Assembly (NCBI RefSeq): GCF_055900595.2
Contig: NZ_CM148325.1
Strand: one strand, 5' to 3'
DNA: 64,000 nucleotides
Shown piece by piece: positions 1,934-35,225 of the stretch. The notes below the pieces were generated by a model. That model saw nothing but the letters and a program-made list of their open reading frames with translations, did not search any database and had not been told where the DNA came from. Position numbers and translations under genes: made by a program. Positions within the stretch are counted from its first letter, which is position 1. Every line of letters begins with the position of its first letter.

Positions 1934-4900
1934 AGCGCTCGCTCCGGGCAGGCGAAGCGTTGCAATAGCCCGCGGTTCACCGGGTCAAAATCCCGTCCGG
2001 CGGTGATTTCCAGCACCACCCGCCGCCCGTCAAAACTGTACTCCACCTGCTGTGTTCCCCGTACCACCGTCTCCTGCGCGTTACCCGCATCCAGCAGGTG
2101 AAACAGCGCCCATGGCCCGTTAGTCAGCAACGTCGAGGTGTCCTGGCGGATGCGCGGGCTGGCGGTGATTTCCGCCATTGAGCCGTTGCGCGGCCCCGGC
2201 CAGTTCACTTTCAGCGGCCTGACCGGGCCGTGAGCGTAGCGAAGCACCTGGCCGTCAATGTCAATCACCAGTTCGGTGATGGCAGGGTCCATATCCACCA
2301 CCCGCACCTGCATCGCCCAGGAAAACTTTTTCCCGCCTTCCCCATTAAAAAAAACGCTGCGGATCTGTTTCGCCTCCTGAAACGGTGTCAGGTCCGGCCC
2401 AAGCAACGTCATGTTGCCTTCGGTCGGTTTGTAGCGCCACGGGTTGCTGGCGGTGTCCGCCAGTGGGGCCAGTTGCTTCGTCCAGAACGCATCCAGCACG
2501 CCGCCGCTGGCAAAGATATGGTTAAAATCGTCCGCGCTGACTTCCTGCGGGCTGTCGGTGAAGGGGTAGCGCCCGTCGATGGCGTCGCGGCACTCATCAC
2601 CGATCACCGCTTCCATCTGCGCGTTCAGCACTTCACCGGTGCCGGCGTTGATTTTTCGCGTTCCCTGCTGCGTGAGATCCAGCAGAATATTTTTCAGTGG
2701 CGCGGGCAGTTTTGCCGCCTCCAATTGCAGTTTATCCGCCGCAGAAATGCGGCCAGGTAATGTGCTCGCTGCCAGTGCACTATCAGCGATGGTGAGCTGG
2801 GTGTAATACTCATTGAGCATCGTCAGCAGCGAATTTAACTGCGGCGCGCCGCCGCCCTGCCCGCTGTCTGTCCGCCCGGAAACCACTTCCCGCAAGGCGG
2901 CGAAACGGTCATCCACCAGTGATTTCTCTAGCCGCTCTTCCGGGTGGATGTCCTGCAATAGCTTTGCCGTCTGCACTGCTTTTCCCACATTGCCGGAGAG
3001 CCGGTCCTGCGTGCGCTGGGCCATCTGCTTTTGTCTGGCCTGCGCATCCAGCGGCGGCACCAGCGTGGTCTGCTCCACCACCGCTTTACTCAGGCGCATC
3101 AGCGGGGAATCCGGCGAGGCCAGGGTACGCAGCACCTGAAGGTCATACGCCAGCCCGGGACTGCCGTCTTCCCCGGCACTGTTGATGCTGTGAATACTGG
3201 CCAGAAAATCCTGCCAGCGGCGGGCATATTCAGCCAGGTACAGGCGGCGTACCTCACGGGTAACCGGGAGTTCCTGCCCCGGCAACTGGCTCATCACAAT
3301 ATCCGTCGTTTTTTTTTGCGTGTTTTCCCGGCCCATCACCCAGGCGTCGTCCGCTGATGCGGCTGCGACAAACTCCGACAGCCGTTTGTCGAACAGTTCC
3401 CGGTAGCCTTCGCGAGTGAAGATGCCGGGCACGCCCCGATCCAGCGGCGCGCCATCCGTGCGGACAAAAACCGTTCCCGCATCCGCGCCCACAGCGCGAA
3501 CCAGCGAAAACTCCTGCGGTGCTTCGCTCTCCATGGAAGCCAGGGCTCGAGTGTAGATACGCTCGGTGCTGGTATGGCCGTCAAGGAAAGCTCGCGCCTG
3601 GCGGATCAGCCCCTCATCTTTTTCCCAGGGCAAATGCACCACGCGGCTGCCGTCAAACAGGGCATCGATATGCTCCAGCACGGCGGCGCGACCGCCGAAC
3701 TCCGCCACGCTGTCGCGGTTGCCCAGGTCGTTCAGCACCCAGGCGTGGATCTCCGCCGCGTTGTATTTATCCTCGTGGTCCTTATCGAGGTTCAGCAACA
3801 GATAAACATGCAGGGCGTCATAGGCGGCTTTGCTGTCCTGACGCGCAATCGCATCCGAAAGCACGTATTCCATGCGTTTCACCAGCGGTGGCAGCAGTAA
3901 CTGGTCCAGCAGACGGTCATACAGGGATGCGACGCTCTCCATCACCGGCGGAACGCTGTAAAGACCATAACACCAGGCCAGCGGCGGCGAGTCCGGGTCC
4001 AGTCCCGGCCATGCAGAGAGCGCCCGTGCCTGGTTCAGCAGGGCCGGAACAGGCTGCATAGCAGGTTTTCCGGTATAGGCTTTGACATCACCATCCAGTT
4101 GGGTCGTCCGGCTGGCGATTTCATTCAGATAACCGCTGTTCCCCTGCTGGCTACCCTGCATGCCCTGCCACAACCAGAAAGCCAGCGCCAGTACCAGCAG
4201 ATGCCCGCCAGTACGCAGCAGGCGATAACGCCAGGCCCATTGAAGATTCGGCTCCACCAGGTGCGCTTCGCGGAAGATAAACTGCGTCAGTAGATCGTGC
4301 AGGAAATAGCTGCGGTTGCCGTCCGGCAGGGTATGGGATGGGGAATCAGCCTTCCCTTTGATCGCCCGGACAAAACGCTGCCAGATGCCCGACTGGTCAG
4401 CCACGGCGTCTGCCTGCGCCTGCGCGGCGCTGGTAAAAAATACGCCGCGCAGGGTGTTGTTAAGCTGGGTGGCGTCAAATTTTGAGTCGAGGAAAATCTG
4501 CTCAATGGCTTCCAGCAGCGGCGCACCCAGCGCGGCAAATTCACGCGGGAAGCGGTAGAGCCGCTGGCGGCTTTGAAGGTCGTACTCTTCCTGCAACCGG
4601 GTATCCAGCCCCTGATCCAGCCGCAGCGTCAGGTTTGCCAGTTCCCGGCCACAGAGCGCATGCAGCGACTGCGGATCGCTGGCGTGACGCCTGCGGCTGT
4701 AAGGCAGGGTGAAGCCCCAAACCTGGGCGCGCAGGTGGCTGGTCAGCCCGTGGAAATACTCCGTAAAGCCCGGCAGCAGATCCATTTTGGTGACGACCAG
4801 ATAGACCGGAAAACGAATACCCAGCGTCTCCCGCAGTTCCGCCAGCCGCGCACGCAGGGCCGCACAGGCAGCCAGTCGTTCCGCCGGGGACTGCGCGGTC

Positions 4901-5796
4901 AGATCCGCCACGTTCAGCGTCAGGATCACACCGTTGAGCGGTGCGCCAGGGCGGTGCTTACGCAGCAGCCCAAGAAACCCCTGCCACTCCCCGGCGTTAC
5001 GCTGAGTCGCGCTGATTTCGCCGCCGTCATCGTGGCGGGCATAGCGCCCGGCGGTATCGATGAGTACAGCCTCGTTGGTGAACCACCAGTCACAGTGCAG
5101 CGTGCCGCCGCCCGGCACGGTGAGGATATGCGCGGTCTGCTCCATCTGCTCCGCCAGCGGAAACTGTAGCCCGGTGTTAAGTAGCGCGGTGGTTTTGCCA
5201 TCGCCGGGGCTGCCGATAACCATAAACCACGGCAGTTCGTACAGGAAGCGCTTCCCTTCCAGGACCTTACGCCAGCCGGGCAGGTCCACCCGCAGTTGTT
5301 TCAGTTGCCGGATGGCACGGGTGACAATATGGCTGACCGTGCGCAGGTCGGCTTTAATTTCCCCGGCCACCGGCACGTCTTCCCCGCGCGGATGCAGGAA
5401 ACGGCGCAGCAGTTGTTCATCCAGGCGCAGCGCCCGCCACAGTCGGTACAGGCCATAAAGCGCATAAGTCAGCAGGATCAGGCCGATAAGCGTCAGACGC
5501 AGCCACAGCGGCGCAAACGGGCGAACGTCACCGAAGGCCAGCAGGGGTGAAACAAAACCGATGACCAGGCACAGAACCGTTACGCCAATGATGCTCATCG
5601 ACCAGTTCACCAGCCACAGGGCGAGGAACATCAGTAACAGAACGATGGTGACTACCCGGCTCCCCACAGATGCCAGCGGATGCAGGGTATCAAACGCCAC
5701 CAGCGGCCCGATAAACCAGACCAGCAACGCCAGCATCACCACGCCGACAACGGCCAGCGCGCGGCGGGAAAACAGCATACTGAGAAATTTTTGCAT
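1930..5796 (-). CDS. tssM: T6SS membrane complex protein TssM (IcmF family)
   Basis: 1288-aa ORF with N-terminal transmembrane helices, Walker A motif GSPGDGKTT, and a large C-terminal periplasmic region. Coupled to the upstream and downstream genes. Confidence 0.9.
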   Translation of the reverse strand: MQKFLSMLFSRRALAVVGVVMLALLVWFIGPLVAFDTLHPLASVGSRVVTIVLLLMFLALWLVNWSMSIIGVTVLCLVIGFVSPLLAFGDVRPFAPLWLRLTLIGLILLTYALYGLYRLWRALRLDEQLLRRFLHPRGEDVPVAGEIKADLRTVSHIVTRAIRQLKQLRVDLPGWRKVLEGKRFLYELPWFMVIGSPGDGKTTALLNTGLQFPLAEQMEQTAHILTVPGGGTLHCDWWFTNEAVLIDTAGRYARHDDGGEISATQRNAGEWQGFLGLLRKHRPGAPLNGVILTLNVADLTAQSPAERLAACAALRARLAELRETLGIRFPVYLVVTKMDLLPGFTEYFHGLTSHLRAQVWGFTLPYSRRRHASDPQSLHALCGRELANLTLRLDQGLDTRLQEEYDLQSRQRLYRFPREFAALGAPLLEAIEQIFLDSKFDATQLNNTLRGVFFTSAAQAQADAVADQSGIWQRFVRAIKGKADSPSHTLPDGNRSYFLHDLLTQFIFREAHLVEPNLQWAWRYRLLRTGGHLLVLALAFWLWQGMQGSQQGNSGYLNEIASRTTQLDGDVKAYTGKPAMQPVPALLNQARALSAWPGLDPDSPPLAWCYGLYSVPPVMESVASLYDRLLDQLLLPPLVKRMEYVLSDAIARQDSKAAYDALHVYLLLNLDKDHEDKYNAAEIHAWVLNDLGNRDSVAEFGGRAAVLEHIDALFDGSRVVHLPWEKDEGLIRQARAFLDGHTSTERIYTRALASMESEAPQEFSLVRAVGADAGTVFVRTDGAPLDRGVPGIFTREGYRELFDKRLSEFVAAASADDAWVMGRENTQKKTTDIVMSQLPGQELPVTREVRRLYLAEYARRWQDFLASIHSINSAGEDGSPGLAYDLQVLRTLASPDSPLMRLSKAVVEQTTLVPPLDAQARQKQMAQRTQDRLSGNVGKAVQTAKLLQDIHPEERLEKSLVDDRFAALREVVSGRTDSGQGGGAPQLNSLLTMLNEYYTQLTIADSALAASTLPGRISAADKLQLEAAKLPAPLKNILLDLTQQGTRKINAGTGEVLNAQMEAVIGDECRDAIDGRYPFTDSPQEVSADDFNHIFASGGVLDAFWTKQLAPLADTASNPWRYKPTEGNMTLLGPDLTPFQEAKQIRSVFFNGEGGKKFSWAMQVRVVDMDPAITELVIDIDGQVLRYAHGPVRPLKVNWPGPRNGSMAEITASPRIRQDTSTLLTNGPWALFHLLDAGNAQETVVRGTQQVEYSFDGRRVVLEITAGRDFDPVNRGLLQRFACPERAL

Positions 5797-6091: not shown

Positions 6092-6766
6092 CTAATGGGC
6101 GATGAGTAAATTAGAGAAATGCAACCAGTTGTTGACAATAAAATTGCCATAGCTGGTATCTTCCTTTATTTTCTCCAGAGTAAGCGACATACCCCGGTTA
6201 TAACGGGCACCAATAATTCTTATCTGCTCTTTCGTCAGGTGTGGTAAGGAGGACTGAAATTCATCTCTTTCAGCTAATTGATAAAGATGTCTGGCCACAA
6301 GTTGAATATTAAAAATATCATGCTGGAGGCAATTTGCCAGTTCACGCAATTGAGAGGTATCCATTTTTGACTCATCAAGCCCAAGCGTTCTGGCTGCGGT
6401 TCGCAATTGCATACTCACTGCACCAAAAGATGTTTTTTCTGGTCTCGAAGTTATTGTGATATGTTCATCAATCCACTCAGGCCCACTCCAGTCAATAGTC
6501 CGAGCATCAAATGCCAGCATATCTACAATACTGGGATCCCCCCCGACTTCTATCCAACACACACCTGCCAGTAAAGGTGCTGGCAAATTATATGTATTGG
6601 CAGCCGATGTTATCAGAAGATGGTTATGTTTTACCCAGCCATCTTTGAAATAACGCCCAAACGGTACACCACCGCCCCATTTTTTTGGCGCTAATTTCCA
6701 GAAAAGAAATTCGGTCACGCCCCATACCGGTGAATGATTCGATGCATTGCAGTCCAGATTATTCAT
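6092..6766 (-). CDS. Hypothetical protein with lysozyme/lytic-transglycosylase-like motifs (SciQ-position gene); candidate peptidoglycan-active accessory or effector
   Basis: ORF 6092-6775. ATG at 6766 has GGAG 8 nt upstream; an alternative GTG at 6775 overlaps the tssL stop. Motif series WIEVGG ... GAVSMQL ... GARYNRG is reminiscent of SLT-domain E / GLMQ / AYNxG motifs but with atypical spacing. No signal peptide. AT-rich. Confidence 0.4.
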   Translation of the reverse strand: MNNLDCNASNHSPVWGVTEFLFWKLAPKKWGGGVPFGRYFKDGWVKHNHLLITSAANTYNLPAPLLAGVCWIEVGGDPSIVDMLAFDARTIDWSGPEWIDEHITITSRPEKTSFGAVSMQLRTAARTLGLDESKMDTSQLRELANCLQHDIFNIQLVARHLYQLAERDEFQSSLPHLTKEQIRIIGARYNRGMSLTLEKIKEDTSYGNFIVNNWLHFSNLLIAH

Positions 6767-6771
6767 TTTTC

Positions 6772-8088
6772 TCACTCCACCACCAGAATTTCCACCCGAC
6801 GGTTCTGCGCCCGTCCGGTTTTAGTGCTGTTATCGGCCACCGGTACGGTATCTCCTTTCCCGACGACCCGAATCCGGCTGACCGGAACACCACCGGACGT
6901 CAGCAGTGAAGCCACTTCCGTCGCCCGTTTTTCCGACAACACCTGGTTGGAGGGGAATTCAGCGGAGTGGATCGGCTGACTGTCGGTGTGTCCGGTCACC
7001 GTCACCGCGCCGCCCACACGCGCAATCTCTCGCGCGGCCTTATCAATCACCGGGCTTAGCGCATCATTCACGGTTTTCTGCCCTGGTATAAACATCGTAT
7101 CGCCACGAAAGATTACACGGCTGTGATGGTCATCTTCCTCCACCGTCAGCAGGCCACGGGCGATTTCGTTCGCCAGCAGGATTTTCAGCCGCAGTTTATG
7201 CACTGGAACGGGTGGCGGCGGTAGATTTTTACCAATGGCGTCGATACGCTGTTGTACGGTTTCGATAGCGAGGTTCATCCGGTGGCTGTAAAGGCCAAAC
7301 AGCGTCAGCATCACCAGCAGGGCGATTCCGGCACTCAGCCAGACCGGCACGCGGCGCATCCGTCGCATTCGCCCACTGACGGCACCGGCAAAACCCGGCG
7401 AGAGCGTCGGCGTGATCGGATCGCGACGCTGGACCAGTTGAGTCAGCAGTTGCTGACGAATATCGTCCAGTTGTTTACGTCCGTCAGGCCGTACACTGTA
7501 GCGGCCTTCAAAACCCAGCCCCAGAATGTGGTAAATGATCTCCAGTACATCGTTGTGCTCCTGGAAGCTTGCGGCCAGACGCCCAATTATCTGAAACAGC
7601 TTGATGCCGCCTTCACTTTCGCCATGAAAAGTGACCAGCAGGCTTTTTCCAGCCCAGACACCGCGCCGCCCCCAGGTGGTGTTGTTGGCGGCTTCGTCCA
7701 GCGAAGTGCATAGGCAATAACGCACAGCCAGCACATGTTCGCGGCGAAGGTTTGCCTGATCGCATAACGTCTGATATCGACGAACTTCACGCTCCAGTAG
7801 GGCACGATAATGTTCGACAAAACCAGGGGATAGTTCACGGGGCATTTGCGCCAGCGCGCACAGCAGAGGGCTTGCCGCCGCTAAAAGGGGATTCACGGCA
7901 GCGGTGATTTCAGCCAGCCGGATCTTCACATCCGGGCCGTCTTCAACCACCACCTTTATATCTTCCCTGCGAAGGTTGTCCTGTATTGCCGTATCGTAAC
8001 CGTCACTGTCGGGCAGTTTTACTCCCCCGGCTGATGGCTGGAAGGGCAGGGTATTCGCCGCAGGCGGCGTCAGGATCTCATCGGTCAT
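6772..8088 (-). CDS. tssL: T6SS membrane protein TssL (DotU-like) with C-terminal OmpA/MotB-like peptidoglycan-binding domain
   Basis: 438-aa ORF with a DotU-like N-terminal region, one TM segment (VWLSAGIALLVMLTLFGLY), and a C-terminal OmpA-like region (TVTGHTDSQP...SEKRA...NRRVEI). Overlaps the tssK stop. Confidence 0.85.
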   Translation of the reverse strand: MTDEILTPPAANTLPFQPSAGGVKLPDSDGYDTAIQDNLRREDIKVVVEDGPDVKIRLAEITAAVNPLLAAASPLLCALAQMPRELSPGFVEHYRALLEREVRRYQTLCDQANLRREHVLAVRYCLCTSLDEAANNTTWGRRGVWAGKSLLVTFHGESEGGIKLFQIIGRLAASFQEHNDVLEIIYHILGLGFEGRYSVRPDGRKQLDDIRQQLLTQLVQRRDPITPTLSPGFAGAVSGRMRRMRRVPVWLSAGIALLVMLTLFGLYSHRMNLAIETVQQRIDAIGKNLPPPPVPVHKLRLKILLANEIARGLLTVEEDDHHSRVIFRGDTMFIPGQKTVNDALSPVIDKAAREIARVGGAVTVTGHTDSQPIHSAEFPSNQVLSEKRATEVASLLTSGGVPVSRIRVVGKGDTVPVADNSTKTGRAQNRRVEILVVE

Positions 8089-9428
8089 TTATCGCGAACT
8101 CCCCACAGCTCCAGCTCCAGCCCTGGAAACTCTCCGGCGGTATGCATTGCCATACCACCATAGCGGGCGATATGTTCCCACAACACGCCGTCGCGGCGGA
8201 TGTCGTAATAGATGTAACCGGACTGGAACGGGATCTGACGCGGCGGCACCGGCAATACCTGTAAAGCAAGACCCGGCAGGTGCGAGCGAATCAGTTCCGG
8301 CAGGCGTTCTGACGGCCCTATTTTGGTCTGAGCCGAAAAATGTTGTAGTAAGGTGTCGGCGGACATCTGTGCCTTCACCGCCAATACTAACGAGCTGAAA
8401 TCTGACAGTTCGGTAGGTTCAACCACCGCATTGAGAATACCGTAAATTCCCTCTTCCAGAGGGATTCGCTGCGCCCCACGTATTAGCACAGCATTCAGCA
8501 GATACTGAACCTCGTCCACCACCGATTTCAGCCCGGCATAGGGCGTCAAATGCTTATATTCTTTATATTCTTCCGGACGGCGTGTTTGCGGGCGCACGTA
8601 GGTAGAGAGTTCTCCGGCAAGTGCGCAGAGGTTACGATACAGCACCTCAGGCGACAGCGGTGTTTTCGACATATGGATCAGTAAGGGGCCGAAACGATTA
8701 AGAACTTGCAGAAGCAGGTAATCAGACACTTCCGCCGCTTCATGACCGTGTTTGTCGCTCCCCGTCAATCGTTCCGCCAGTGAATTTGCACGCATTTTTA
8801 TCAGATCGTTAATCCACGATAGCCAGGTACATATCAGCGTACTGGCCTGGTAGTTCGCTACTGGCGGGATCAACTCTTTGTCTATATCGACCCGACCATC
8901 GGGATGCAGCGCCGTGATGCGTGTCAGCGGCAGGCCGATCCACGCGTCTGTCACCGCCTTTTCAGGTAACAGTCGCAAGCGCAGGTGGCTAAGTTGCAGT
9001 AGTTGCGCGCCTCGCCCCAGCGAATTGGCATCACGGATTTCACTTTCATGTACCGAAAAACGTGCCAGTGATTCAGGGTTATTGTCGAAACTGGTTTCTT
9101 CACTGTTCGGCGTGCGTATTGGCACAGCCAGATAAATCAACTGGTTAAGATGCTCAGGAAGGATGGTCAGAGGCGGCGGGAGTGGTGTGTGCCCCGGCGC
9201 ATTAAAAGGTGTACCGTCAGCAAATACCCCGGAAGCCTTCGTTAGTACCAGCTTTCCGATGTTCAGCGCCTCACTACCAATACCATACTCATTGAAGCCC
9301 CAGAAAAAAGGTGAAAGAGGCAAACTGCGATAATGAATGACATGTTCCAGATAGCGTTCCTGCTGCTGAAACATCTGTGGCAGCAAAAATTGTCCTTCAC
9401 TCCAGACCACCCGGTTATTCCAACTCAT
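8085..9428 (-). CDS. tssK: T6SS baseplate protein TssK
   Basis: 447-aa ORF, translationally coupled to tssJ upstream and tssL downstream; size and position typical of TssK. Confidence 0.8.
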   Translation of the reverse strand: MSWNNRVVWSEGQFLLPQMFQQQERYLEHVIHYRSLPLSPFFWGFNEYGIGSEALNIGKLVLTKASGVFADGTPFNAPGHTPLPPPLTILPEHLNQLIYLAVPIRTPNSEETSFDNNPESLARFSVHESEIRDANSLGRGAQLLQLSHLRLRLLPEKAVTDAWIGLPLTRITALHPDGRVDIDKELIPPVANYQASTLICTWLSWINDLIKMRANSLAERLTGSDKHGHEAAEVSDYLLLQVLNRFGPLLIHMSKTPLSPEVLYRNLCALAGELSTYVRPQTRRPEEYKEYKHLTPYAGLKSVVDEVQYLLNAVLIRGAQRIPLEEGIYGILNAVVEPTELSDFSSLVLAVKAQMSADTLLQHFSAQTKIGPSERLPELIRSHLPGLALQVLPVPPRQIPFQSGYIYYDIRRDGVLWEHIARYGGMAMHTAGEFPGLELELWGVRDK

Positions 9429-9431
9429 AAT

Positions 9432-9965
9432 TTACTCATCCCGTTCTTTAATCACTATGGCGCTTTGCTCTATGCCTGCATCCAGTTCGACTTTTTTCTT
9501 TGGCATAAAGCGGCTGTACCAACTTTTTTCCGGTGGATCAGGAATTTTATATGTAGCCCGCCAGACCGATTTTCCCAGATTGCGGTATCCGGCGAGGATC
9601 CCCAGCGTGGTGGTTTCCTTATTGAGGGAGCGGCGCAATTTTTTCTCCTCGCCCGGACGCAGAATAAAGCTGTCGCGGTGGAGTAAATCATCAGCAAGAA
9701 CAGCCTTGTCATTGTCCTGAAGGGACCACCAGTCCGCCGCCGTGAAAGCTGCATCATTTTTCAGTTCATAAACGCGTATCTCTATGGGCGCGGCTTTTTT
9801 CTGATTGTCAGGATTCACCTTATCGGAAGCCTTCATCACCAGATCGAGTCTTTGTGACATCAGGTCCGGCACGTCGTCGCTGTCAATGCTGCACCCGGAA
9901 AGCAGGCAGACAAAAGACAAAGCTACCGCACATAACCACCCACCGGGGTTACGCCATTTATTCAC
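9432..9965 (-). CDS. tssJ: T6SS outer-membrane lipoprotein TssJ
   Basis: Long ORF 9432-10091 trimmed to a GTG at 9965 that has an AAGGA Shine-Dalgarno upstream. This gives a lipoprotein signal peptide ending in the lipobox LLSGC. 4 nt before tssK. Confidence 0.7.
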   Translation of the reverse strand: MNKWRNPGGWLCAVALSFVCLLSGCSIDSDDVPDLMSQRLDLVMKASDKVNPDNQKKAAPIEIRVYELKNDAAFTAADWWSLQDNDKAVLADDLLHRDSFILRPGEEKKLRRSLNKETTTLGILAGYRNLGKSVWRATYKIPDPPEKSWYSRFMPKKKVELDAGIEQSAIVIKERDE

Positions 9966-9991
9966 TGTAATTTCCTTTAAAATCAAATGAT

Positions 9992-10021
9992 AAAAACCGG
10001 CCTGGCTATTTGCCGGGCCGG
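9992..10021 (-). terminator. Intrinsic terminator/attenuator hairpin immediately downstream of hcp
   Basis: Minus-strand reading gives CCGGCCCGGCAAATAGCCAGGCCGG followed by TTTTTATCATTT, i.e. a GC-rich stem then a U-tract, between the hcp stop and the tssJ start. Confidence 0.6.
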
Positions 10022-10032
10022 AAAAGTACCGC

Positions 10033-10518
10033 TTAAATTTCTTTATTGGCCTTGAAGTCGTAGCCTGCGGTGATGGTGCCGCCGCTGCCACCTTGCTGGT
10101 TTTGCACCACGTATTCCTGCTTCACGGTGCTGAAAGAGAGTTCGACTGTTTCACGGGAGGCAATTTCACCTTCTTTACTGCCGCTGGGCGATACAACCGC
10201 CACAATCAGGTCAGTGAAGGTATATTTGAGATATTCCAGCGGATTGCCGCCTGCTTTACGCATGGTCAGCACAGCTTTCGGAATGTGTTTGCCAGAGGCG
10301 CAGTACTTGAACAGGTTCGGACTGGCGCGATCGATATAGTGGTCAAAGTCCAGGTTAGTCACGGAGACTTTACCGGATCCCAGACCGCTGCCCGCGTGCA
10401 TGGTGGATTCCTGGTGGATATTCCAGCGCCAGCTCAGCACCTCAATTTCATTTTTATGTTTGTCATCCATTGACTCGCCGTCAATACCGTCAATTTTCAG
10501 AAAAATGTCATAAGCCAT
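10033..10518 (-). CDS. hcp: T6SS tube protein Hcp
   Basis: ORF 10033-10524; the second ATG (10518) has better Shine-Dalgarno spacing and gives MAYDIFLKIDGIDG..., about 161 aa, typical Hcp size and sequence character. Confidence 0.9.
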   Translation of the reverse strand: MAYDIFLKIDGIDGESMDDKHKNEIEVLSWRWNIHQESTMHAGSGLGSGKVSVTNLDFDHYIDRASPNLFKYCASGKHIPKAVLTMRKAGGNPLEYLKYTFTDLIVAVVSPSGSKEGEIASRETVELSFSTVKQEYVVQNQQGGSGGTITAGYDFKANKEI

Positions 10519-10753
10519 TTTCATTTCCTTATTTAGAATTACTTAAAAATAACCTCTGATTTATCTGTACATCTGGATACAGGTAAACCATTGCCGTACA
10601 GAACCCCCTCTCCTTAATTTCAGAAGAACAGAAGGCTGTATAATTTCCGGTACTGAAATACCGGGAAGATATTTATTTACCTTATAAATAAATCATCAAA
10701 ACAATAATTTTAGCCCTGCGTTTCTCACTCAATATATTCACAAAATAAATAAA

Positions 10754-12268
10754 TTAGGCATTACCCTGTTTTACTGACGGCAGTTTTGTGACCAGGCGCA
10801 GCGACCCCGTTAATCCCTCAAGCTGAAAATGCGGGCGCAGGAAGAATTTGGCATCGTAATAACCCGGATTACCTTCCACCTCTTCCACCACCACTTCGGC
10901 AGCTGCTAGTGGGCGACGAGCTTTGGTTTCCTGTGAGGAGTTCACCGGATCGGCATCGACGTAGTTCATGATCCACTCATTGAGCCAGCGCTGCATATCT
11001 TCGCGCTCTTTGAACGAGCCGATCTTGTCGCGCACGATGCATTTGAGGAAGTGTGCAAATCTTGAACAGGCGAACAAATAGGGCAACCGGGCGGAGAGAT
11101 TGGCGTTGGCCGTGGCGTCCGGATCGTAATAATCCTGCGGTTTTTGCAGCGACTGTGCGCCAATAAAGGCGGCATAATCAGAGTTTTTGCGGTGGATCAG
11201 CGGGATAAAACCGTTTTTGGCCAGTTCAGCTTCACGGCGATCAGAGATGGCAATTTCCGTCGGGCATTTCATGTCCACGCCGCCGTCATCGGTCGGGAAG
11301 GTATGACAGGGCAGATTTTCCACCGCGCCACCAGATTCCACACCACGGATCAACGTACACCAACCATAATGTTTGAAAGAACGGTTGATATTTACACCCA
11401 TCGCATAGGCGGCATTGCTCCAGACATATTTGCTGTGATCTGCGCCATCCGCATCTTCTTCAAAATCAAACTCATCGACAGGGTTTGTTTTCGCACCATA
11501 AGGCAAACGGGAGAGAAAACGTGGCATCGTCAGGCCAATGTAGCGAGAATCCTCACTTTTTCGCAGCGAGTTCCACGGTGCGTATTCGAGGTTTTGGGTC
11601 ACGATTTTGGTCAAATCACGCGGGTTAGCCAGTTCCTGCCAGGAGTCCATCTGCAACACTGACGGAGAGGCACCGGCAATAAACGGCGCATGGGCTGAGG
11701 CTGCTACTTTGGCAATGGAACCGAGCAGATCCACATCCGGTGGCGTGTGATCAAAATAATAATCCGCAATAATACAACCGTAAGGTTCTCCACCTAACTG
11801 TCCATATTCAGCTTCATACAGCTTTTTGAACATGGGGCTTTGATCCCAGGCTATCCCTTTGTAACGTTTCATATTTTTCCGCAATTCATCCTTCGAAAGG
11901 TTCATAAAGCGGATTTTTAATTTTTCATCGGTTTCAGTGTTGTAAACCAAATGTTCCATCCCACGCCAGGAGGACTCCAGTTTCTGAAATTCCGGATGAC
12001 TCAGGATGAGTTTGATCTGCTCGGTTAATTTGAAATCAATCTGCTCAATAATCGCAGCAATACTTTTATAAGCGTCGTCACTGACGGTGACGGTATTTGT
12101 CAGAGCCTGTTGGGCCAGCGTCTGAACTGCTGCCTCAACAGCCTTTGCTGCCTGAGGTGTCTTGGGACGGAAGGCTTTATCCAGGAGCGAATCAAATTCA
12201 GTGTCCTGATAGGCAGTGGTTTGCGCAGCAGAGAGATCGCCAGTCGCCAGAAGAGTATCGTTTACCAT
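10754..12268 (-). CDS. tssC: T6SS contractile sheath large subunit TssC
   Basis: 504-aa ORF immediately downstream of tssB; size and position of TssC (VipB). Confidence 0.9.
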   Translation of the reverse strand: MVNDTLLATGDLSAAQTTAYQDTEFDSLLDKAFRPKTPQAAKAVEAAVQTLAQQALTNTVTVSDDAYKSIAAIIEQIDFKLTEQIKLILSHPEFQKLESSWRGMEHLVYNTETDEKLKIRFMNLSKDELRKNMKRYKGIAWDQSPMFKKLYEAEYGQLGGEPYGCIIADYYFDHTPPDVDLLGSIAKVAASAHAPFIAGASPSVLQMDSWQELANPRDLTKIVTQNLEYAPWNSLRKSEDSRYIGLTMPRFLSRLPYGAKTNPVDEFDFEEDADGADHSKYVWSNAAYAMGVNINRSFKHYGWCTLIRGVESGGAVENLPCHTFPTDDGGVDMKCPTEIAISDRREAELAKNGFIPLIHRKNSDYAAFIGAQSLQKPQDYYDPDATANANLSARLPYLFACSRFAHFLKCIVRDKIGSFKEREDMQRWLNEWIMNYVDADPVNSSQETKARRPLAAAEVVVEEVEGNPGYYDAKFFLRPHFQLEGLTGSLRLVTKLPSVKQGNA

Positions 12269-12292
12269 GAAAGTTCCTTAATAAAATCGCAG

Positions 12293-12838
12293 TTAGTCTG
12301 CTGTTCCTGTTTCACCTGATAAGACACTTTCCTGTTGAGCGACAGGTTTTGGCGCACTGGCCAGAGCTTTCAGTAACGTAGGGTCTTGTAATAGTTTGTT
12401 GATAAGATTTTCTGCTCCCGCTTTACCATCCATATACGTTTGTAGGTTGGCAAGCTGAGTACGCGCTTCCAGCAGCTGGTTCAGGGCATCCACCTTACGG
12501 GCAATTTGCGCAGGCGAAAAATCGTCCATATTCTCCAGCGTGATATCGACCATTAACTGCCCTTCGCCCGTCAGCGTATTGGGGACAGCAAACGCCACGC
12601 GCGGCGCAATGGCTTTCATCCGCTCGTTGAAGTTATCGATATCAATATCAAGGAATTTACGATCGGTGACCGGTGGCAGCTCTTCGCGTGGTTTACCGGC
12701 CAGATCGGCCAGCACTGCCATGACAAACGGTAGTTCGATTTTTTTCTCGGAGCCATAAATCTCAACGTCATACTCAATCTGCACGCGGGGCGCGCGGTTG
12801 CGGGCAATAAACTTCTGCGCGCTGTTGTTGATAGCCAT
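12293..12838 (-). CDS. tssB: T6SS contractile sheath small subunit TssB
   Basis: 181-aa ORF directly upstream of tssC; size and position of TssB (VipA). Confidence 0.9.
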   Translation of the reverse strand: MAINNSAQKFIARNRAPRVQIEYDVEIYGSEKKIELPFVMAVLADLAGKPREELPPVTDRKFLDIDIDNFNERMKAIAPRVAFAVPNTLTGEGQLMVDITLENMDDFSPAQIARKVDALNQLLEARTQLANLQTYMDGKAGAENLINKLLQDPTLLKALASAPKPVAQQESVLSGETGTAD

Positions 12839-12899
12839 AATCCTTCATTTCCTTATCAGTGAGCCGACGACCACCAGGGGAGCGGTTCGACGGTACAGT

Positions 12900-13190
12900 T
12901 TAAAAATCATACGCAGAGAGTATTTTTATAATCTCTTTGTTTTCTTTGTACTTTTCCCGCAGCACAGGGAGTGATTTCTTCGCTGGAGGACACCAGGTAT
13001 CAACCCCCTTTTCGATGTCTCTTTTATCCTTCTCTGGTAAAGAACTGTCCCATTCACCAGCAAGATGCTGGCACATTTCCGCATTACTCAGAAAATGCTG
13101 CACATCCTGTGGTAAAGACGGTTCCCCCTGAACACTGAAAGCGAACATCATTAACAGGAATGTCCACAACACCGGATAACGAAATGTCAT
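12900..13190 (-). CDS. Hypothetical small secreted protein (signal peptide) between clpV and tssB
   Basis: 96-aa ORF with N-terminal signal-peptide-like segment MTFRYPVLWTFLLMMFAFSVQG followed by a charged C-terminal region. AT-rich. No known family recognised. Confidence 0.35.
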   Translation of the reverse strand: MTFRYPVLWTFLLMMFAFSVQGEPSLPQDVQHFLSNAEMCQHLAGEWDSSLPEKDKRDIEKGVDTWCPPAKKSLPVLREKYKENKEIIKILSAYDF

Positions 13191-13408
13191 ACTTAATGTC
13201 CATCAATTGACCAGTGCATGAGATATGCTCTGGCGGGAGGGCGATATGTTGCAGAGATACTGCCCCTTGCACGCGCATTACCAAGCGCGCGCAAAAAATT
13301 TTCTACCGATGCACGAAAAGTCCCCTGCAAATCATTAGTGGAAGAACTTACAGGAAAGCGACTGACCCACATTGCGCCACTTAATTCTTTTGCCATAAGG
13401 ATGCTCCA

Positions 13409-16042
13409 TTAATCCGTTTCAAAAATAATCTGTTCATCCTCATCAACACGAATGCGGATTTGCGTGATGGCCGTTTTCTCTGTCATCGCCTGCAACCAAT
13501 AACGGGACAGTTGTGGGAGGATATGTTGTTCGATATAGCCGATGAGCAAACGAGCGCCGGTTTCGTGCATCGGGCAGCGCGACACAATATGCGTAATCAG
13601 TTCATCGCCATACACCAGTGAAACGCCATGCTGCTCCGCCATCCGAGCCATCAATCTGCCAAGATGCAGGCGGGCAATAACACCACGCGCGGTCTCATCC
13701 AGCGGTAAATAAGGAATAACCGTCACACGCCCCAGGAAAGCCGCCGGGAAGTGTTTACGTAACTCCGGCATTAACGCCTCTTTTAGTCCTGCCGAATCAG
13801 GCATCAGCGCCGGATCCTCACAGAGCTGGCTGATAAGTTCCGCCCCCGCGTTAGTAGTCAACAACAGCGTGGTATTTTTGAAATCGATGTGGACACCTTC
13901 GCCGTCCTCCATCGCGCCTTTATCGAATACCTGGTAGAACAACTCGTGGACGTCGTGATGGGCTTTTTCAATTTCATCCAACAGCACTACACTCCAGGGG
14001 TGACGGCGTACGGCTTCCGTCAACACACCGCCTTCGCCATAGCCGACGTAGCCGGGCGGCGCGCCTTTCAGCGTGGAGACGGTGTGAGACTCCTGAAACT
14101 CGCTCATGTTGATGGTGATCAGGTTCTGCTCACCGCCGTAAATAGATTCCGCCAGCGCCAGCGCGGTCTCGGTCTTGCCGACACCGGACGGCCCGGCCAG
14201 CAGAAAGACGCCCATCGGTTTACGCGGGTCGCCTAACCCCGCCCGCGCGGTCTGAATACGCTCGCCAATCTGCGCCAGCGCATCCATCTGCCCGGTAACA
14301 CGCTGCGCCAAACGGGTGGGCAATTCCAGTATCTGACTGGCTTCATCTTTCACCATCCGTCCGGCGGGAATACCGGTCCAGTCAGAGACAATCTCTGCCA
14401 CCACGGTTGCACTGACTTCCGGGTACACGACGGGGTTTTCACCCTGCCAGCCTCTTAATGCCGTTTCTGCCTGTTGTAGAGTGATTTCGTCGCGCTCGCC
14501 AGGCGCTGCGCCGCGTTGCTCCTGTAAACTGCGAACCAACTCCAGTTCCTGCTGCCACCGCGCTTCGGTGTCAGAAAGATCGGCATTAAGCGATATAATC
14601 CGCGCCGTCAGTACATCGCCCCGCTCCGAGCGGATACCCATTTTTTCCTGCTTTAATAACAACTCCTGCTCCAGTTCGGCAGCGTTGAGCTGCTGGCGCA
14701 GATACTGGACTCTCGCAGGCGGGGTATGCAGCGACAGCGCTACACGGGCCGCCGCCGTATCCAGCAGGCTGATGGCCTTATCCGGTAGTTGCCGGGCCGG
14801 AATGTAACGGTGAGAAAGCTGTACGGCGGCACGCACGGCCTCATCAAGGATCAGCACGTCATGGTGTTTTTCAAGCGTGGTGACTAACCCGCGTACCATC
14901 TCAACAGCCGCAACCTCTTCCGGCTCAGCAACCTGCAATACCTGAAAACGCCGGGTCAGCGCCGGATCCTTTTCGATATGGCGTTTGTACTCGCTCCAGG
15001 TGGTTGCGCCGATGGTGCGCAGGGTGCCACGCGCCAGCGCCGGTTTCAGCAGGTTGGCAGCATCCCCCGTACCGGATGTACCACCAGCGCCCACCAGCGT
15101 GTGAACTTCATCAACAAAAAGGATCACCGGCTGCGGCGAGCGCGCGGCCTCTTCCAGCAACGCTTTCAGGCGGGATTCAAATTCACCCTTCATGGAGGCC
15201 CCAGCCAGCAGCGCTCCAACATCCAGTGACAGCAATCGCACGTTACGCAGTGACGGCGGTACTTCCCCCCCGGCAATCGCCAGCGCGAATCCTTCCACCA
15301 CTGCCGTTTTCCCGACCCCCGCTTCGCCGGTCAGTAGCGGGTTGTTCTGGCGACGGCGCAGCAGAATATCCGTCATAGTACGGATCTCGTGTTCGCGACC
15401 GGTGACCGGATCGATATTGCCTTCACGGGCCAGCGCAGTCATGTCCTGGCAGTATTTCGCCAGCGCGGATTTGCTTCCGGTTGATTCGCCGGCAAAGACC
15501 TGGCTAGCTTCCCCCGGTACTGCAGAATTTAAATCCGAGCCGTCATAAGGCATTTCTGTTAATTCAGGAGATGAAGTGATTAAAGACGGAAGAATATCTA
15601 ATAGTTCATCTACCGGTAGCTCTGCCAATGGCGCACAAATATTTTTTAACACCCGACACAATTCTGGCGTGGTTAACCAGGCAAGTAATAACCATCCACT
15701 ACGAATTTTTTGATCGCCAAAGCGGATACTTGCTAACATCCAGGCTTTTTCAACTGAAAGATCGATATGATGGGAAAAATCGTTAATTACACTCGCTCCG
15801 GCAGGCAATATATTCAATTGCTGAATTAACGCCTTCTCAACATCAGCAGATGTTATTTGATAATGTCGAAGCACATTGTGAATGTCATTCTCTGGTTGTT
15901 GTATTAACTGATGCAACCAATGCGTCAGTTCGACATAAGGGTTAGCGCGTAATTTACAGAACGTCGTCGCAGATTCCAAAGATCTAAACAAAGATTTGGT
16001 TAGCTTTCCATACAGTGCACTGCGCGAAACAGGAGTGTCCAT
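13409..16042 (-). CDS. clpV: T6SS AAA+ ATPase ClpV (TssH)
   Basis: 877-aa ORF with two AAA+ modules: Walker A GEAGVGKTA and GPSGVGKTE, Walker B DEVH and DEIEKAH; ClpB-like but located in the T6SS cluster. Confidence 0.93.
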   Translation of the reverse strand: MDTPVSRSALYGKLTKSLFRSLESATTFCKLRANPYVELTHWLHQLIQQPENDIHNVLRHYQITSADVEKALIQQLNILPAGASVINDFSHHIDLSVEKAWMLASIRFGDQKIRSGWLLLAWLTTPELCRVLKNICAPLAELPVDELLDILPSLITSSPELTEMPYDGSDLNSAVPGEASQVFAGESTGSKSALAKYCQDMTALAREGNIDPVTGREHEIRTMTDILLRRRQNNPLLTGEAGVGKTAVVEGFALAIAGGEVPPSLRNVRLLSLDVGALLAGASMKGEFESRLKALLEEAARSPQPVILFVDEVHTLVGAGGTSGTGDAANLLKPALARGTLRTIGATTWSEYKRHIEKDPALTRRFQVLQVAEPEEVAAVEMVRGLVTTLEKHHDVLILDEAVRAAVQLSHRYIPARQLPDKAISLLDTAAARVALSLHTPPARVQYLRQQLNAAELEQELLLKQEKMGIRSERGDVLTARIISLNADLSDTEARWQQELELVRSLQEQRGAAPGERDEITLQQAETALRGWQGENPVVYPEVSATVVAEIVSDWTGIPAGRMVKDEASQILELPTRLAQRVTGQMDALAQIGERIQTARAGLGDPRKPMGVFLLAGPSGVGKTETALALAESIYGGEQNLITINMSEFQESHTVSTLKGAPPGYVGYGEGGVLTEAVRRHPWSVVLLDEIEKAHHDVHELFYQVFDKGAMEDGEGVHIDFKNTTLLLTTNAGAELISQLCEDPALMPDSAGLKEALMPELRKHFPAAFLGRVTVIPYLPLDETARGVIARLHLGRLMARMAEQHGVSLVYGDELITHIVSRCPMHETGARLLIGYIEQHILPQLSRYWLQAMTEKTAITQIRIRVDEDEQIIFETD

Positions 16043-16374
16043 CTGTTACACCTAATGATGTAATAACATATAAATGATACATAAAAATAACTGTATCGAT
16101 TAAAACTTCTAATTAATAGAATTATCAAAAAGGCAGAATAAAACAATGATGCATATCACAGAACACAATGTAATATAGCAGGTAGTATCTTTTTCATGGT
16201 GATATTCAATAGAGCAAGCCAATTTCATACGCACCGTGAATATATTAAATTGTAAATCGCCACTATATATTTCCGTGAAAACTTATATTGATAAAGTAAA
16301 TTGATCAGCTTTGCTTATCTAAAAATTTAGAAAACTTATTCTTTTGAAAGAAACACTCTACACAGTGATACGCA
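16043..16374. promoter_or_regulatory. AT-rich divergent control region between the clpV operon and the fha-like/tssE-F-G-A operon
   Basis: About 330 bp of strongly AT-rich non-coding sequence flanked by divergently oriented start codons. Individual promoter elements not resolved. Confidence 0.5.
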
Positions 16375-24896: not shown

Positions 24897-25655
<759 letters not shown>

Positions 25656-25726
25656 TAAAACTTTCTTGTCATCGGCTCCGTTCGCCGTTATGATCGGTCG
25701 TCTTTTAAGCAACTATTGACACACAC

Positions 25727-31567: not shown

Positions 31568-31571
31568 GCAC

Positions 31572-31598
31572 AAAAAAACCTCGAGCGTTAACTCGAGG
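31572..31598 (-). terminator. rrnH operon terminator downstream of aspU
   Basis: CCTCGAGCGTTAACTCGAGG hairpin with a U-tract on the minus strand (AAAAAAA on plus), directly 3' of tRNA-Asp. Confidence 0.8.
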
Positions 31599-31610
31599 CT
31601 TCTTAATAAG

Positions 31611-31687
31611 TGGCGGAACGGACGGGACTCGAACCCGCGACCCCCTGCGTGACAGGCAGGTATTCTAACCGACTGAACTACCGCTCC
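31611..31687 (-). tRNA. aspU: tRNA-Asp (GUC), distal gene of rrnH operon
   Basis: 77 nt, identical to the 22675-22751 copy. Confidence 0.97.
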
Positions 31688-31739
31688 ACCGAATTCTTTT
31701 ACAACCACCGGTTTTATGACCGGCTTACTGCTTAATTTG

Positions 31740-31859: not shown

Positions 31860-31952
31860 AATTCTGTTTCATCAGACCGCTTCTGCGTTCTGATTTAATC
31901 TGTATCAGGCTGAAAATCTTCTCTCAATCCGCCAAAACATCTTCGGCGTTGT

Positions 31953-34857
<2,905 letters not shown>

Positions 34858-35106: not shown

Positions 35107-35148
35107 ATAACATGTAGTTAAAACCTCTTCAAATTTGCGGTGCAAATT

Positions 35149-35225
<77 letters not shown>

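Follow-up and report, generated by a model that had tools for sequence, protein, structure and literature searches.

A conserved leader and a terminator-like hairpin flank hcp within a SPI-6-type type VI secretion operon

Firing of a type VI secretion system (T6SS) needs hundreds of copies of Hcp and few subunits of the membrane complex. This raises the question of how unequal amounts can be supplied when hcp is embedded in one long operon, as is the case in the 64-kb stretch of DNA analysed here (the window). The original prediction held that hcp is insulated by an AT-rich leader upstream and by an intrinsic terminator downstream. The analysis leads us to regard hcp as probably a self-contained high-expression unit, formed by a leader and a terminator-like hairpin within the minus-strand operon, an arrangement that is most likely used to make more Hcp than downstream membrane parts.

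The hcp locus and its AT-rich spacer

The cluster is a type VI secretion cluster of the Salmonella SPI-6 type, in which hcp encodes the tube protein. In addition to the genes listed below, Pfam also confirms tssB, tssK, tssL and tssM on the minus strand. The island adjoins a tRNA-Asp gene in the window; SPI-6 is located likewise, at aspV.

10754-12268, minus strand: tssC, sheath large subunit, upstream of the spacer (Pfam VipB, 3e-132; VipB_2, 9e-45)
10525-10530, minus strand: Shine-Dalgarno sequence of hcp, AAGGAA, inside the block UAAUAAGGAAAU, 6 nt before the ATG (alignment)
10033-10518, minus strand: hcp (tssD), T6SS tube protein of 161 aa (Pfam T6SS_HCP, 3.6e-40)
9432-9965, minus strand: tssJ, lipoprotein gene, the first gene past the hairpin (Pfam T6SS-SciN, 5.6e-37)

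The Hcp of the window is 100% identical to that of Escherichia sp. E1V33 and 95% identical to Salmonella SPI-6 Hcp. Its gene, which ends with the TAA at 10033-10035, starts at the ATG at 10516-10518 and not at the in-frame ATG at 10522-10524, because the upstream ATG reads ATA in three relatives and the spacing of the AAGGAA sequence is correct only for 10518. The spacer towards tssC therefore comprises exactly 10519-10753, i.e., 235 bp. The block UAAUAAGGAAAU is invariant in the first eight aligned sequences (Escherichia, Citrobacter and Enterobacter), and Salmonella has GGAUAU where the Shine-Dalgarno sequence sits in the window. On the other side of hcp, tssJ has a GTG start (9963-9965), found in 12 of 13 aligned variants, a Shine-Dalgarno sequence AGGA at 9973-9976 and the lipobox LSGC. 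The coordinates originally given for hcp, the spacer, the hairpin and the U-tract all hold, exact to the base.

Both flanks of hcp stand out in the layout of the operon. Within the array of 15 co-directional genes, the tssC-hcp spacer is the largest gap and the 67 bp between hcp and tssJ the second largest, all others being of 61 bp or less; from tssJ to tssM, the genes overlap or are separated by at most 8 bp. The spacer is indeed AT-rich, as predicted, and contains the palindrome CCGGTACTGAAATACCGG at 10647-10664. Its GC content is 0.31, compared with 0.54 in the T6SS genes and 0.52 in the window, which places it within the lowest 0.4% of all 235-nt windows; such marked AT enrichment over the surroundings is a trait of H-NS-silenced regulatory regions. 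Only three stretches of the window have a GC content of 0.34 or less, and two of them are the spacer and the divergent promoter region of clpV/fha (15929-16480); in this respect the spacer therefore resembles a regulatory region.

The terminator-like hairpin downstream of hcp

The GC-rich hairpin and U-tract that the original prediction placed within 12 nt of hcp begin 11 nt past the TAA stop.

9997-10021, minus strand: GC-rich hairpin of 25 nt, CCGGCC-C-GGC-AAAUA-GCC-A-GGCCGG (folding, dG -17.7 kcal/mol)
9992-9996, minus strand: U5 tract directly 3' of the hairpin, then AUCAUUUGAUUUU (sequence)

The stem has ten positions with nine pairs (8 G-C, 1 C.A mismatch) and closes a 5-nt loop, and UUUUUAUCAUUUG comes directly after its last base. 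The element has the compact GC-rich stem, the short loop and the adjoining U-tract of an intrinsic terminator, and the 75-nt hcp-tssJ segment folds with a z-score of -3.3, equalled by none of 200 shuffles. An automated terminator scan of the window did not report the hairpin, because of the internal C.A mismatch. A stricter scan, which demanded a single hairpin of at most 30 nt with a dG of -12 or lower and at least four U in the first five bases of the tail, returned 15 sites when both strands of the 64 kb were counted, compared with 2-4 in Markov-shuffled controls; among these 15, the site after hcp is one of the strongest and the sole stringent site inside the T6SS operons.

The hairpin is kept, with compensatory changes, in 15 sequence variants from Escherichia, Citrobacter, Enterobacter and Salmonella. 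Across 13 distinct Escherichia, Citrobacter and Enterobacter variants, 93.8% of the alignment cells are paired, and the position of the C.A mismatch is A-U in five variants and C-G in two. The covariation score is 0.156 (0.115 in shuffled alignments) and was reached by none of 500 shuffles, a comparison that draws on close relatives, with a permissive shuffle control for such kin and changes on both sides in two of the ten pairs, so that the compensatory changes carry moderate weight. The U-tract reads at least UUUUU in 12 of the same 13 variants and is broken (UCUUU) in locus L099. In Salmonella the inner stem differs (AGAU/AUCU) with pairing still perfect, and the U-tract is mostly interrupted (AUUUAUUGUUUU; UUUUAUUGUU in one Paratyphi A copy), while the U5 of the window is intact. 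The hairpin is degenerate (-5.4 kcal/mol) at one Salmonella locus, where tssC is called as two separate genes. Beyond this group, the 70 nt after hcp were folded at 61 beta-proteobacterial loci, whose Hcp is mostly 59-72% identical, and they fall in the lowest tenth of same-locus folding energies at 70% of the loci, against 10% expected, in line with a trait of the whole family.

Taken together, these observations support the reading of the hairpin and its U5 as a conserved, canonical element of the intrinsic-terminator type within the operon. The partial termination suggested by the original prediction fits this position. Between the U-tract and the GTG of tssJ there are 26 nt, which hold the Shine-Dalgarno sequence only and show no promoter consensus; tssJ to tssM are therefore most likely expressed by polymerase that reads through the hairpin. 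Two points weigh against termination: an analogous hairpin in Yersinia did not act as a terminator, and most Salmonella orthologues carry the interrupted tract AUUUAUUG, which is weaker for this purpose.

A structured leader and the remnant of an effector cassette

Although the original prediction treated the 235 bp as one leader, the proximal ~170 nt form a conserved, structured RNA-like region, and the distal 63 bp mark the place of a lost Tae2/immunity cassette. The features of the two parts are as follows.

10690-10753, minus strand: distal part of the spacer, remnant of a tssC-tae2 intergenic region, 63 bp (blastn, motif match)
10647-10664, no strand assigned: H1, palindrome CCGGTA-N6-TACCGG, at the 5' edge of the conserved block (sequence)
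10597-10642, minus strand: H2, predicted stem-loop, CU-rich arm ACAGCCUUCUGUUCUUC paired with GA-rich arm GGAGAGGGGGUUCUGU (RNAalifold consensus)
10557-10590, minus strand: H3, predicted 13-bp stem-loop, UGGUUUACCUGUAU...GUACAGAUAAAUCA (folding)

In blastn comparisons with cassette-bearing E. coli loci, homology stops at 10753 and resumes at 10689, and ATTTATTTTGTGAAT in the distal part matches the Salmonella tssC-tae2 spacer at 15 of 15 positions. In relatives, the cassette consists of an amidase gene of the NCBIfam BPSL0067 family, whose product matches PDB 6WIN, 'Type 6 secretion amidase effector 2' (E = 1.5e-33), and of a gene of the STY0301 family, the presumed Tai2 immunity gene. The pair lies between tssC and hcp in loci L002, L003, L005 and L007, and is absent from this site in the window and in L001, where 63 bp stand in place of ~0.92 kb. 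Salmonella loci have two unnamed genes of similar size at this site, and in Citrobacter and Enterobacter a stretch of 589-780 bp is retained here that holds no long ORF. Nearly all relatives carry a Tae2 amidase effector gene and a presumed immunity gene here, and the distal 63 bp are the leftover of the deletion of this pair in the lineage of the window. A deletion mediated by the TTTGTGAAT-like motif found after tssC and after the immunity gene in relatives was considered and is unsupported, because the window retains both copies.

The orthologous Salmonella SPI-6 T6SS (sciG-sciS; hcp1/STM0276 and hcp2/STM0279), the source of the 95% identical Hcp, has the gene order of the window, tssB-tssC-(effector/immunity)-hcp-tssJ-tssK-tssL. 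Homologues of the leader (H2 and H3) and of the hairpin are present as well, the former ahead of hcp1 and the latter behind each of the two hcp copies. The Salmonella cluster differs in that it keeps the Tae2-like pair and, in many serovars, adds a Tae4-Tai4-hcp2 module, whereas in the window hcp occurs once and the site between tssC and hcp lacks an effector pair. The module arose by duplication, in which hcp, the hairpin and a 34-codon remnant of tssJ were copied together around Tae4-Tai4, an association that counts in favour of the hairpin.

The proximal ~170 nt stay directly upstream of hcp even where the Tae2 cassette is present. Their column identity is ~85% over Escherichia, Citrobacter and Enterobacter, they are recognisable in Salmonella, and they hold blocks of invariant columns across these four genera. 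A metagenome pattern scan returned 31 loci, of which eight carry a full-length Hcp and one an Hcp with a premature stop; the remaining ones are chance matches to an AT-rich pattern. Most relatives in Escherichia and Citrobacter retain H1; it is degenerate in L002/L077 and in L007, and Salmonella has a shorter form, CGGTACCG. Read on the plus strand, where a T-rich tail follows, H1 has a terminator-like score. A role in ending transcription of the upstream cassette on the sense strand was rejected: no U-tract follows H1 on that strand, and on the antisense strand, the only one with such a score, there is no gene to terminate.

H2 and H3 are predicted from the same sequences on which their pairing was judged, and in this consensus H2 comprises 16 pairs with 94% of the cells paired. 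H2 was recovered in every single-sequence fold, Salmonella included, and is specific to the sense strand, because several of its U.G pairs would be A.C on the other strand. H3, which ends 38 nt upstream of the hcp ATG, likewise appears in the consensus and in each fold of a single sequence, and is formed by all nine sequence variants folded. Its third pair is G.U, G-C or A-U across variants, and where the window has a C.A mismatch, U-A is found in L007, L099 and Salmonella. Further in, both bases of a pair differ between variants: the inner pairs are G-C/U-A in the window, G-C/C-G in L099 and A-U/U.G in Salmonella. Such double changes affect only 3 of the 34 leader pairs among close relatives, for which the shuffle control is permissive. 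A permissive Rfam 15 search of 9000-13500 gave no match with E of 1 or less, and at the gathering threshold, applied to the whole window, no family fell in the hcp region.

Two other readings of H3 were rejected. A small leader peptide from a conserved ATG inside it (MVYL.../MIYL...) seemed plausible at first, as the variable sites are third codon positions. However, nothing past codon 4 is conserved, relatives vary in the length and stop of the ORF, and the first-position V/I change (G/A) covaries with the H3 partner base (A-U in six, G-C in three, G.U in two). H3 followed by UUAUUUUU is not a canonical attenuator because the U-run starts 5-6 nt past the stem.

Routes to a surplus of Hcp

The original prediction attributed the surplus to an internal promoter in the AT-rich region, which would give extra hcp transcription ahead of a partially terminating hairpin, and we hold this to be a real possibility that falls short of probable. 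Besides the low GC content shared with the clpV/fha region and the constant position of the ~170-nt block, it is favoured by the conserved motif GGAAAWTATAYAG adjoining the palindrome and by a weak -35/-10 pair, TTCCCG-16-AATTAT, which would put a start site near the base of H2. However, a sigma-70 scan of 10519-10753 gave no match of at least 9/12, and looser scans gave weak candidates (6.5-8 of 12) that are unconserved among relatives, the most recurrent of them, TYCAGA-17-GATTAT, reading GGTTAT in the window. For sigma-54, whose promoters are common in other T6SS clusters (GG-N10-GC; TGGCAC-N5-TTGCW), the best match in the spacer agrees at 6 of the 11 specified bases and is without the GC at -12; the sole 6/11 match with both GG and GC lies inside the end of tssC. 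As for Fur or Dam control of the EAEC sci1 type, the best Fur box match, at 13/19, was equalled or exceeded in 54 of 500 shuffles, and 10500-10800 contains no GATC (Dam) site. No convincing sigma-70 or sigma-54 site thus backs the predicted promoter in the 235-bp spacer; activator-dependent promoters can lack consensus, which leaves room for a functional one.

Experimental work on related loci bears on this promoter in both directions. In S. Typhimurium, regulated activity was measured when lacZ was fused to the 'promoter regions' of hcp1 and tae4 (PMC10657408). Those reporters were made in pDM4-lacZ, and a literature search for transcription start sites of SPI-6 hcp1 found no paper. Since pDM4-lacZ is a suicide vector that integrates into the chromosome, the lacZ activity may also report read-through from upstream. 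In Yersinia pseudotuberculosis, the region upstream of hcp4 had no promoter activity and alone gave no expression (PMC12503267).

The Yersinia T6SS4, the closest case with experimental data, is the model for a second account, in which neither an internal promoter nor termination is involved and processing and stabilisation suffice. There, hcp4 mRNA is far above the mRNA of downstream genes, and mutation of the GC stem-loop after hcp4 reduced hcp4 mRNA alone; the stem-loop behaved as a stabiliser and not a terminator (PMC12503267, 2025). Applied to the window, an endoribonuclease would cut in the AU-rich spacer and just past the hairpin, stem-loops would protect a monocistronic hcp mRNA, and the downstream RNA would decay fast. 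The layouts are alike: in both, hcp comes after the sheath genes within a long operon, the upstream spacer is AU-rich and contains AUUA motifs and a predicted stem-loop, a GC-rich stem-loop lies directly past the hcp stop inside the operon, and the arrangement is proposed to yield more mRNA of hcp than of the genes that follow. The 69% A+U of the leader, its three AUUA motifs and conserved 5' stem-loops, the lack of a promoter consensus in the spacer and the conservation of the Salmonella hairpins despite their interrupted U-tract all agree with processing. Against it, the conserved U5-U6 run in 12 of 13 variants would be needless for a pure exonuclease barrier, and the Yersinia cluster is non-orthologous, of another T6SS subtype and with the order hcp4-tssE4 instead of hcp-tssJ, with no sequence homology claimed; transfer is therefore by analogy only. 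While the Yersinia hairpin is experimentally a stabiliser, that of the window carries a canonical U5. We regard processing on its own as a tentative explanation.

That the spacer has no dedicated function, being AT-rich acquired DNA with a deletion scar, at most an H-NS nucleation site, and with an incidental palindrome, appears improbable. The distal 63 bp are such a scar, and the palindrome is degenerate in some relatives. H-NS silencing is known for Salmonella SPI-6 in general, including its T6SS genes (PMC12288458, PMC10657408), and in S. Typhimurium RNA-seq the listed genes sciD-sciS are essentially unexpressed, below 10 TPM, and the data are uninformative (PMC4643027 supplement). Neutral AT-rich DNA would, however, account neither for the proximal ~170 nt, conserved over four genera with blocks of invariant columns, nor for H2 and H3 pairing that is kept despite sequence change.

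Least probable, and in our view quite unlikely, is that transcription ends efficiently at the hairpin, as at the end of an operon, and that tssJ-tssM have their own promoter in the hcp 3' end or overlapping the hairpin. In favour of this, the hairpin matches the strength of operon-end terminators at other places in the window, and a -10-like TATCAT (9987-9992; TATTAT or TATTGT in relatives) lies past the stem. Against it, the matching -35 position reads CGGCAA (2/6 only), a promoter scan reported no site in 9900-10100, and the U-tract and the GTG are just 26 nt apart. The precedent for such an arrangement is EHEC EDL933, whose h3R region (hcp3-vgrG3) contains a terminator and stabilises hcp3 mRNA (PMC13141884, 2026). 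As in the window, a predicted terminator hairpin lies a few nt past the hcp stop; the EHEC hairpin lowers expression of the next gene, and its deletion reduces hcp mRNA and protein. In that different T6SS cluster, however, the terminator is followed by an own promoter and a long spacer, and hcp3 and vgrG3 are therefore separate operons (PMC13141884), whereas in the window tssJ starts 26 nt past the U-tract with no recognisable promoter. A leader and a hairpin flanking hcp are thus a layout already described for Yersinia T6SS4 hcp4 and EHEC hcp3.

Our preferred reading combines partial termination with stabilisation, in a mechanism that we infer from sequence as regards termination efficiency, read-through, stabilisation, processing and any promoter at hcp. 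In the operon clpV-tssB-tssC-hcp-tssJ-tssK-tssL-...-tssM, hcp would be embedded as a unit of its own. RNA polymerase reaching the hairpin and U5 past the hcp stop would terminate a fraction of transcripts, and the hairpin left at their 3' end would also shield hcp mRNA from 3' exonucleases. The fraction that reads through would provide tssJ to tssM at a lower level, with a further drop in tssJ output expected from its GTG start. The effects of the stem-loop after hcp4 in Yersinia and of the region after hcp3 in EHEC are experimental precedents for this reading. At the 5' side, the 170-nt AU-rich leader with H2 and H3, together with a strong and well-spaced ribosome-binding site, would keep hcp mRNA stable and efficiently translated. 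This role would be the same whether the polycistronic RNA is cut within the AU-rich spacer to create the 5' end or transcription starts locally, at a weak, activator-dependent or H-NS-silenced site beside the palindrome. The distal 63 bp, as a residue of the Tae2 pair deletion, would have no function of their own. Operons in which gene ratios are set by intercistronic stabiliser hairpins or attenuating terminators include puf, malEFG and pap (cited in PMC12503267), where a stem-loop after a highly needed upstream cistron likewise leads to differential mRNA levels in one operon; these cases represent a general principle and not a homologous family.

How an operon delivers such Hcp ratios is a practical question for switching on silent clusters. 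The leader and the hairpin form a compact, conserved and easily mutated pair in the SPI-6 family of Salmonella, E. coli, Citrobacter and Enterobacter, and comparison of the canonical U-tract of the window with the stabiliser-only hairpin of Yersinia would separate termination from decay protection. The tssC-hcp spacer is, in addition, a hotspot for gain, duplication and loss of effector/immunity pairs, which is relevant to predicting the toxin repertoire of a strain. More speculatively, SPI-6-type clusters might possess, in the ~170-nt leader (H1-H2-H3, 10557-10664), a cis-regulatory RNA not described before, through which Hcp output would be controlled post-transcriptionally. Such an RNA could be a stabiliser processed at its 5' side, or it could sense temperature, a protein or a small RNA, a temperature-sensing route being proposed from a weak UUCUU/AGGAA pairing over the hcp Shine-Dalgarno sequence in relatives. 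If this were true, the supply of tube protein would be regulated apart from the rest of the machine.

The T6SS island and the flanks of hcp

The window comes from an Escherichia chromosome and holds an rrn operon and a T6SS island adjoining a tRNA-Asp gene, together with ORFs whose sizes would fit dnaE and bamA. Its main genes are the following:

1930-5796, minus strand, tssM (Pfam)
9432-9965, minus strand, tssJ (Pfam)
10033-10518, minus strand, hcp (Pfam)
10754-12268, minus strand, tssC (Pfam)
13409-16042, minus strand, clpV (Pfam)
minus strand, tssB, tssK and tssL-OmpA (Pfam)
plus strand, divergent from the minus-strand genes, an FHA-like gene, tagJ, tssE, tssF, tssG and tssA
31438-36835, region of a complete rrn operon (16S, tRNA-Ile, tRNA-Ala, 23S, 5S, tRNA-Asp)

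Hcp shares 100% identity with Hcp of Escherichia sp. E1V33 and 95% with that of Salmonella SPI-6, identities that make the cluster the Escherichia counterpart of SPI-6. Between clpV and tssB (12900-13396) lie ORFs of 96 aa, with no Pfam match, and 67 aa; the latter may be a remnant, since the gene at its position in E. coli 06-00048 is annotated as a frameshifted peptidoglycan-binding-domain protein. A 227-aa ORF between tssL and tssM (6092-6775), also with no Pfam match, shares 4 nt with tssL, an overlap suggestive of translational coupling. At 207-1135, downstream of tagF, a glucosaminidase-domain protein (156 aa) overlaps a Tgi2PP-family T6SS immunity protein (157 aa), probably forming a peptidoglycan-glycoside-hydrolase effector/immunity pair at the cluster end. 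Rfam matches StyR-44 (34865-34963) and, just downstream of the rrn operon, the Hfq-binding sRNA STnc490 (31438-31561). The 94-nt 'tRNA-His' that ARAGORN places inside tssF (20276-20369) is without Rfam support and almost certainly a false positive.

All coordinates of the original prediction proved correct, and coordinates, composition and folding confirm that hcp is flanked by an AT-rich spacer and a terminator-like hairpin. Translation of hcp starts with ATG 10516-10518. Another ATG in frame, two codons earlier, is ATA in three relatives and too near the Shine-Dalgarno sequence; the spacer to tssC (10519-10753) is therefore exactly 235 bp, as predicted. With a GC content of 0.31, compared with 0.54 for the T6SS genes, it falls in the lowest 0.4% of all 235-nt windows, and it is the largest gap of the 15-gene array, the 67 bp between hcp and tssJ coming second. 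No position of the Shine-Dalgarno block UAAUAAGGAAAU varies among the eight Escherichia, Citrobacter and Enterobacter sequences first aligned.

The hairpin after hcp

The predicted GC-rich hairpin with a U-tract is present at 9992-10021. Its stem-loop (CCGGCC-C-GGC-AAAUA-GCC-A-GGCCGG, 9997-10021) begins 11 nt past the hcp stop codon and is directly followed on its 3' side by UUUUU (9992-9996), with the GTG start of tssJ 26 nt beyond. The 75-nt hcp-tssJ segment has a folding z of -3.3. When both strands of the window were scanned stringently for compact hairpins next to a U-run, 15 sites were returned, versus 2-4 for shuffled sequence. At -17.7 kcal/mol the hcp site ranks with the strongest of them, and no other falls within the T6SS operons, the rest lying at the island edge just after tssA (one) or outside the island (13).

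Orthologous loci were collected from complete E. coli genomes, one genome per species and metagenomes; those from Escherichia, Citrobacter and Enterobacter yielded 13 different hairpin sequences, and Salmonella loci were added later. Aligned, the 13 have 93.8% of cells paired, the position of the window's C.A mismatch is A-U in five variants and C-G in two, and the covariation score exceeds all 500 shuffles; pairing collapses in register-shifted controls. At least UUUUU is retained in 12 of the 13 variants. The Salmonella hairpin has a different inner stem, AGAU/AUCU, with perfect pairing, and its U-tract is mostly interrupted (AUUUAUUGUUUU). Both anatomy and conservation thus support the proposed reading of this element as a putative terminator or attenuator.

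A single block made up of hcp, its hairpin and a 34-codon tssJ remnant has been duplicated in Salmonella around a Tae4-Tai4 pair (L102, 3487-3789 and 4786-5340; also L103, L104 and L107); the first tssJ copy is a truncated signal-peptide remnant. In the Salmonella assembly L105 (330-1838), gene calling splits tssC in two, and the hcp hairpin is degenerate and, at -5.4 kcal/mol, weaker than at any other locus, as would fit relaxed selection on a cluster in decay. The joint duplication and this degenerate hairpin suggest a functional tie between the hairpin and hcp. Two of the metagenome loci appear decayed: the U-tract after hcp is broken in L099 (GUUCUUU, about 10951-11000), and hcp of L078 has a premature stop after 35 codons (about 12661-12768). 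A set of 61 more distant loci was nearly all beta-proteobacterial, Hcp identity being mostly 59-72%. Ranked against folding energies from the same locus, the 70 nt behind hcp are in the lowest tenth in 70% of these loci, so that a strong predicted stem-loop right after hcp is the rule there also.

A composite spacer upstream of hcp

The AT-rich leader had been treated as one unit. What stood is its proximal part, about 170 nt that adjoin hcp on its upstream side in all relatives, whether or not a cassette occupies the tssC-hcp site, at about 85% column identity in Escherichia, Citrobacter and Enterobacter and recognisable in Salmonella; the distal 63 bp are better described as a putative deletion scar. 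RNAalifold and every single-sequence fold of the conserved block recover the same hairpins:

10647-10664, H1, the palindrome of the original prediction
10597-10642, sense strand, H2, a CU-rich arm paired to a GA-rich one, several of the pairs being U.G
10557-10590, H3, nine sequence variants, all of which fold

Because of its U.G pairs, H2 could form in sense-strand RNA only. In H3 the third pair is G.U, G-C or A-U among variants, the window's C.A mismatch is U-A elsewhere, and inner pairs vary on both sides. Across the leader structure 94.9% of cells pair, with double changes in a modest 3 of 34 pairs. As the compared sequences are close relatives, H2 and H3 are regarded as well-supported candidate structures rather than proven ones.

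With a single exception, the E. coli genomes covering the region carry two genes between tssC and hcp, as do Citrobacter and Enterobacter. The first encodes a Tae2-family amidase of the BPSL0067 family, matching the solved structure 6WIN, "Type 6 secretion amidase effector 2" (E = 1.5e-33), and the second a STY0301-family protein, presumably its immunity partner. The corresponding position in Salmonella holds two unnamed genes of comparable size. The pair is missing in the window and in the goat E. coli isolate R32_14_1F (98.6% identical). The site lies at these positions:

10690-10753, window, cassette absent
3187-4025, relative L002
3198-4070, relative L003
1368-2219, relative L005
1610-2411, relative L007

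Homology to cassette-bearing loci breaks off with the stop codon of tssC and starts again at 10689, and the initial stretch of the intervening 63 bp matches the Salmonella tssC-tae2 spacer at 15 of 15 positions, so the distal spacer is most simply read as a deletion scar. The tssC-hcp spacer is a variable effector site. A TTTGTGAAT / TATGTAAAT-like motif occurs at 10685-10745 and in relatives (L003, about 4080-4095), in most of them once directly behind tssC and a second time directly ahead of the palindrome; it does not match a CRP site.

Internal promoter or processed leader

An internal promoter upstream of hcp, also proposed originally, found no positive sequence evidence: a consensus scan of the spacer returned no site, loose scans gave only weak, non-conserved candidates, and sigma-54, Fur and Dam signatures are absent from it. 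A regulatory role of the spacer is favoured by its GC content, shared with the clpV/fha promoter region, and by a conserved GGAAAWTATAYAG motif abutting the palindrome. Three stretches of the window have a GC content of 0.34 or less:

10519-10753, the spacer
15929-16480, the 332-bp clpV/FHA-like divergent region, besides the spacer the island's only strongly AT-rich stretch
25324-25695, inside or at the end of ORF 24900-25655, outside the island

By analogy with the Salmonella clpV promoter, the divergent region is probably the main bidirectional promoter and an H-NS/Fur target. The lacZ vector of the S. Typhimurium fusions considered here integrates into the chromosome and can report read-through from upstream. 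In S. Typhimurium, lacZ fusions to the hcp1 and tae4 "promoter regions" respond to H-NS and c-di-GMP (PMC10657408). The cluster is silent in standard Salmonella RNA-seq.

In T6SS4 of Yersinia pseudotuberculosis, hcp4 transcripts are in large excess over those of the downstream genes, the region upstream of hcp4 is without promoter activity, and when the GC stem-loop behind hcp4 is mutated, hcp4 mRNA is the only one to fall; the authors proposed endonucleolytic processing, with loops at the 5' and 3' ends giving protection (PMC12503267). This nearest precedent argues against the putative internal promoter. The preferred mechanism is that the hairpin would combine partial termination with 3' protection, and that the AU-rich leader of hcp would be structured and efficiently translated, with a 5' end that may come from processing or from a weak regulated start; taken jointly, we regard the two parts as somewhat probable. 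In EHEC, a terminator in the region after hcp3 uncouples vgrG3 and stabilises hcp3 mRNA (PMC13141884). The layout of the present locus is that of Yersinia hcp4 and EHEC hcp3, from which it differs in its canonical U-tract and in leaving no space for a downstream promoter. It is thus a new, orthologously conserved instance of an already known arrangement.
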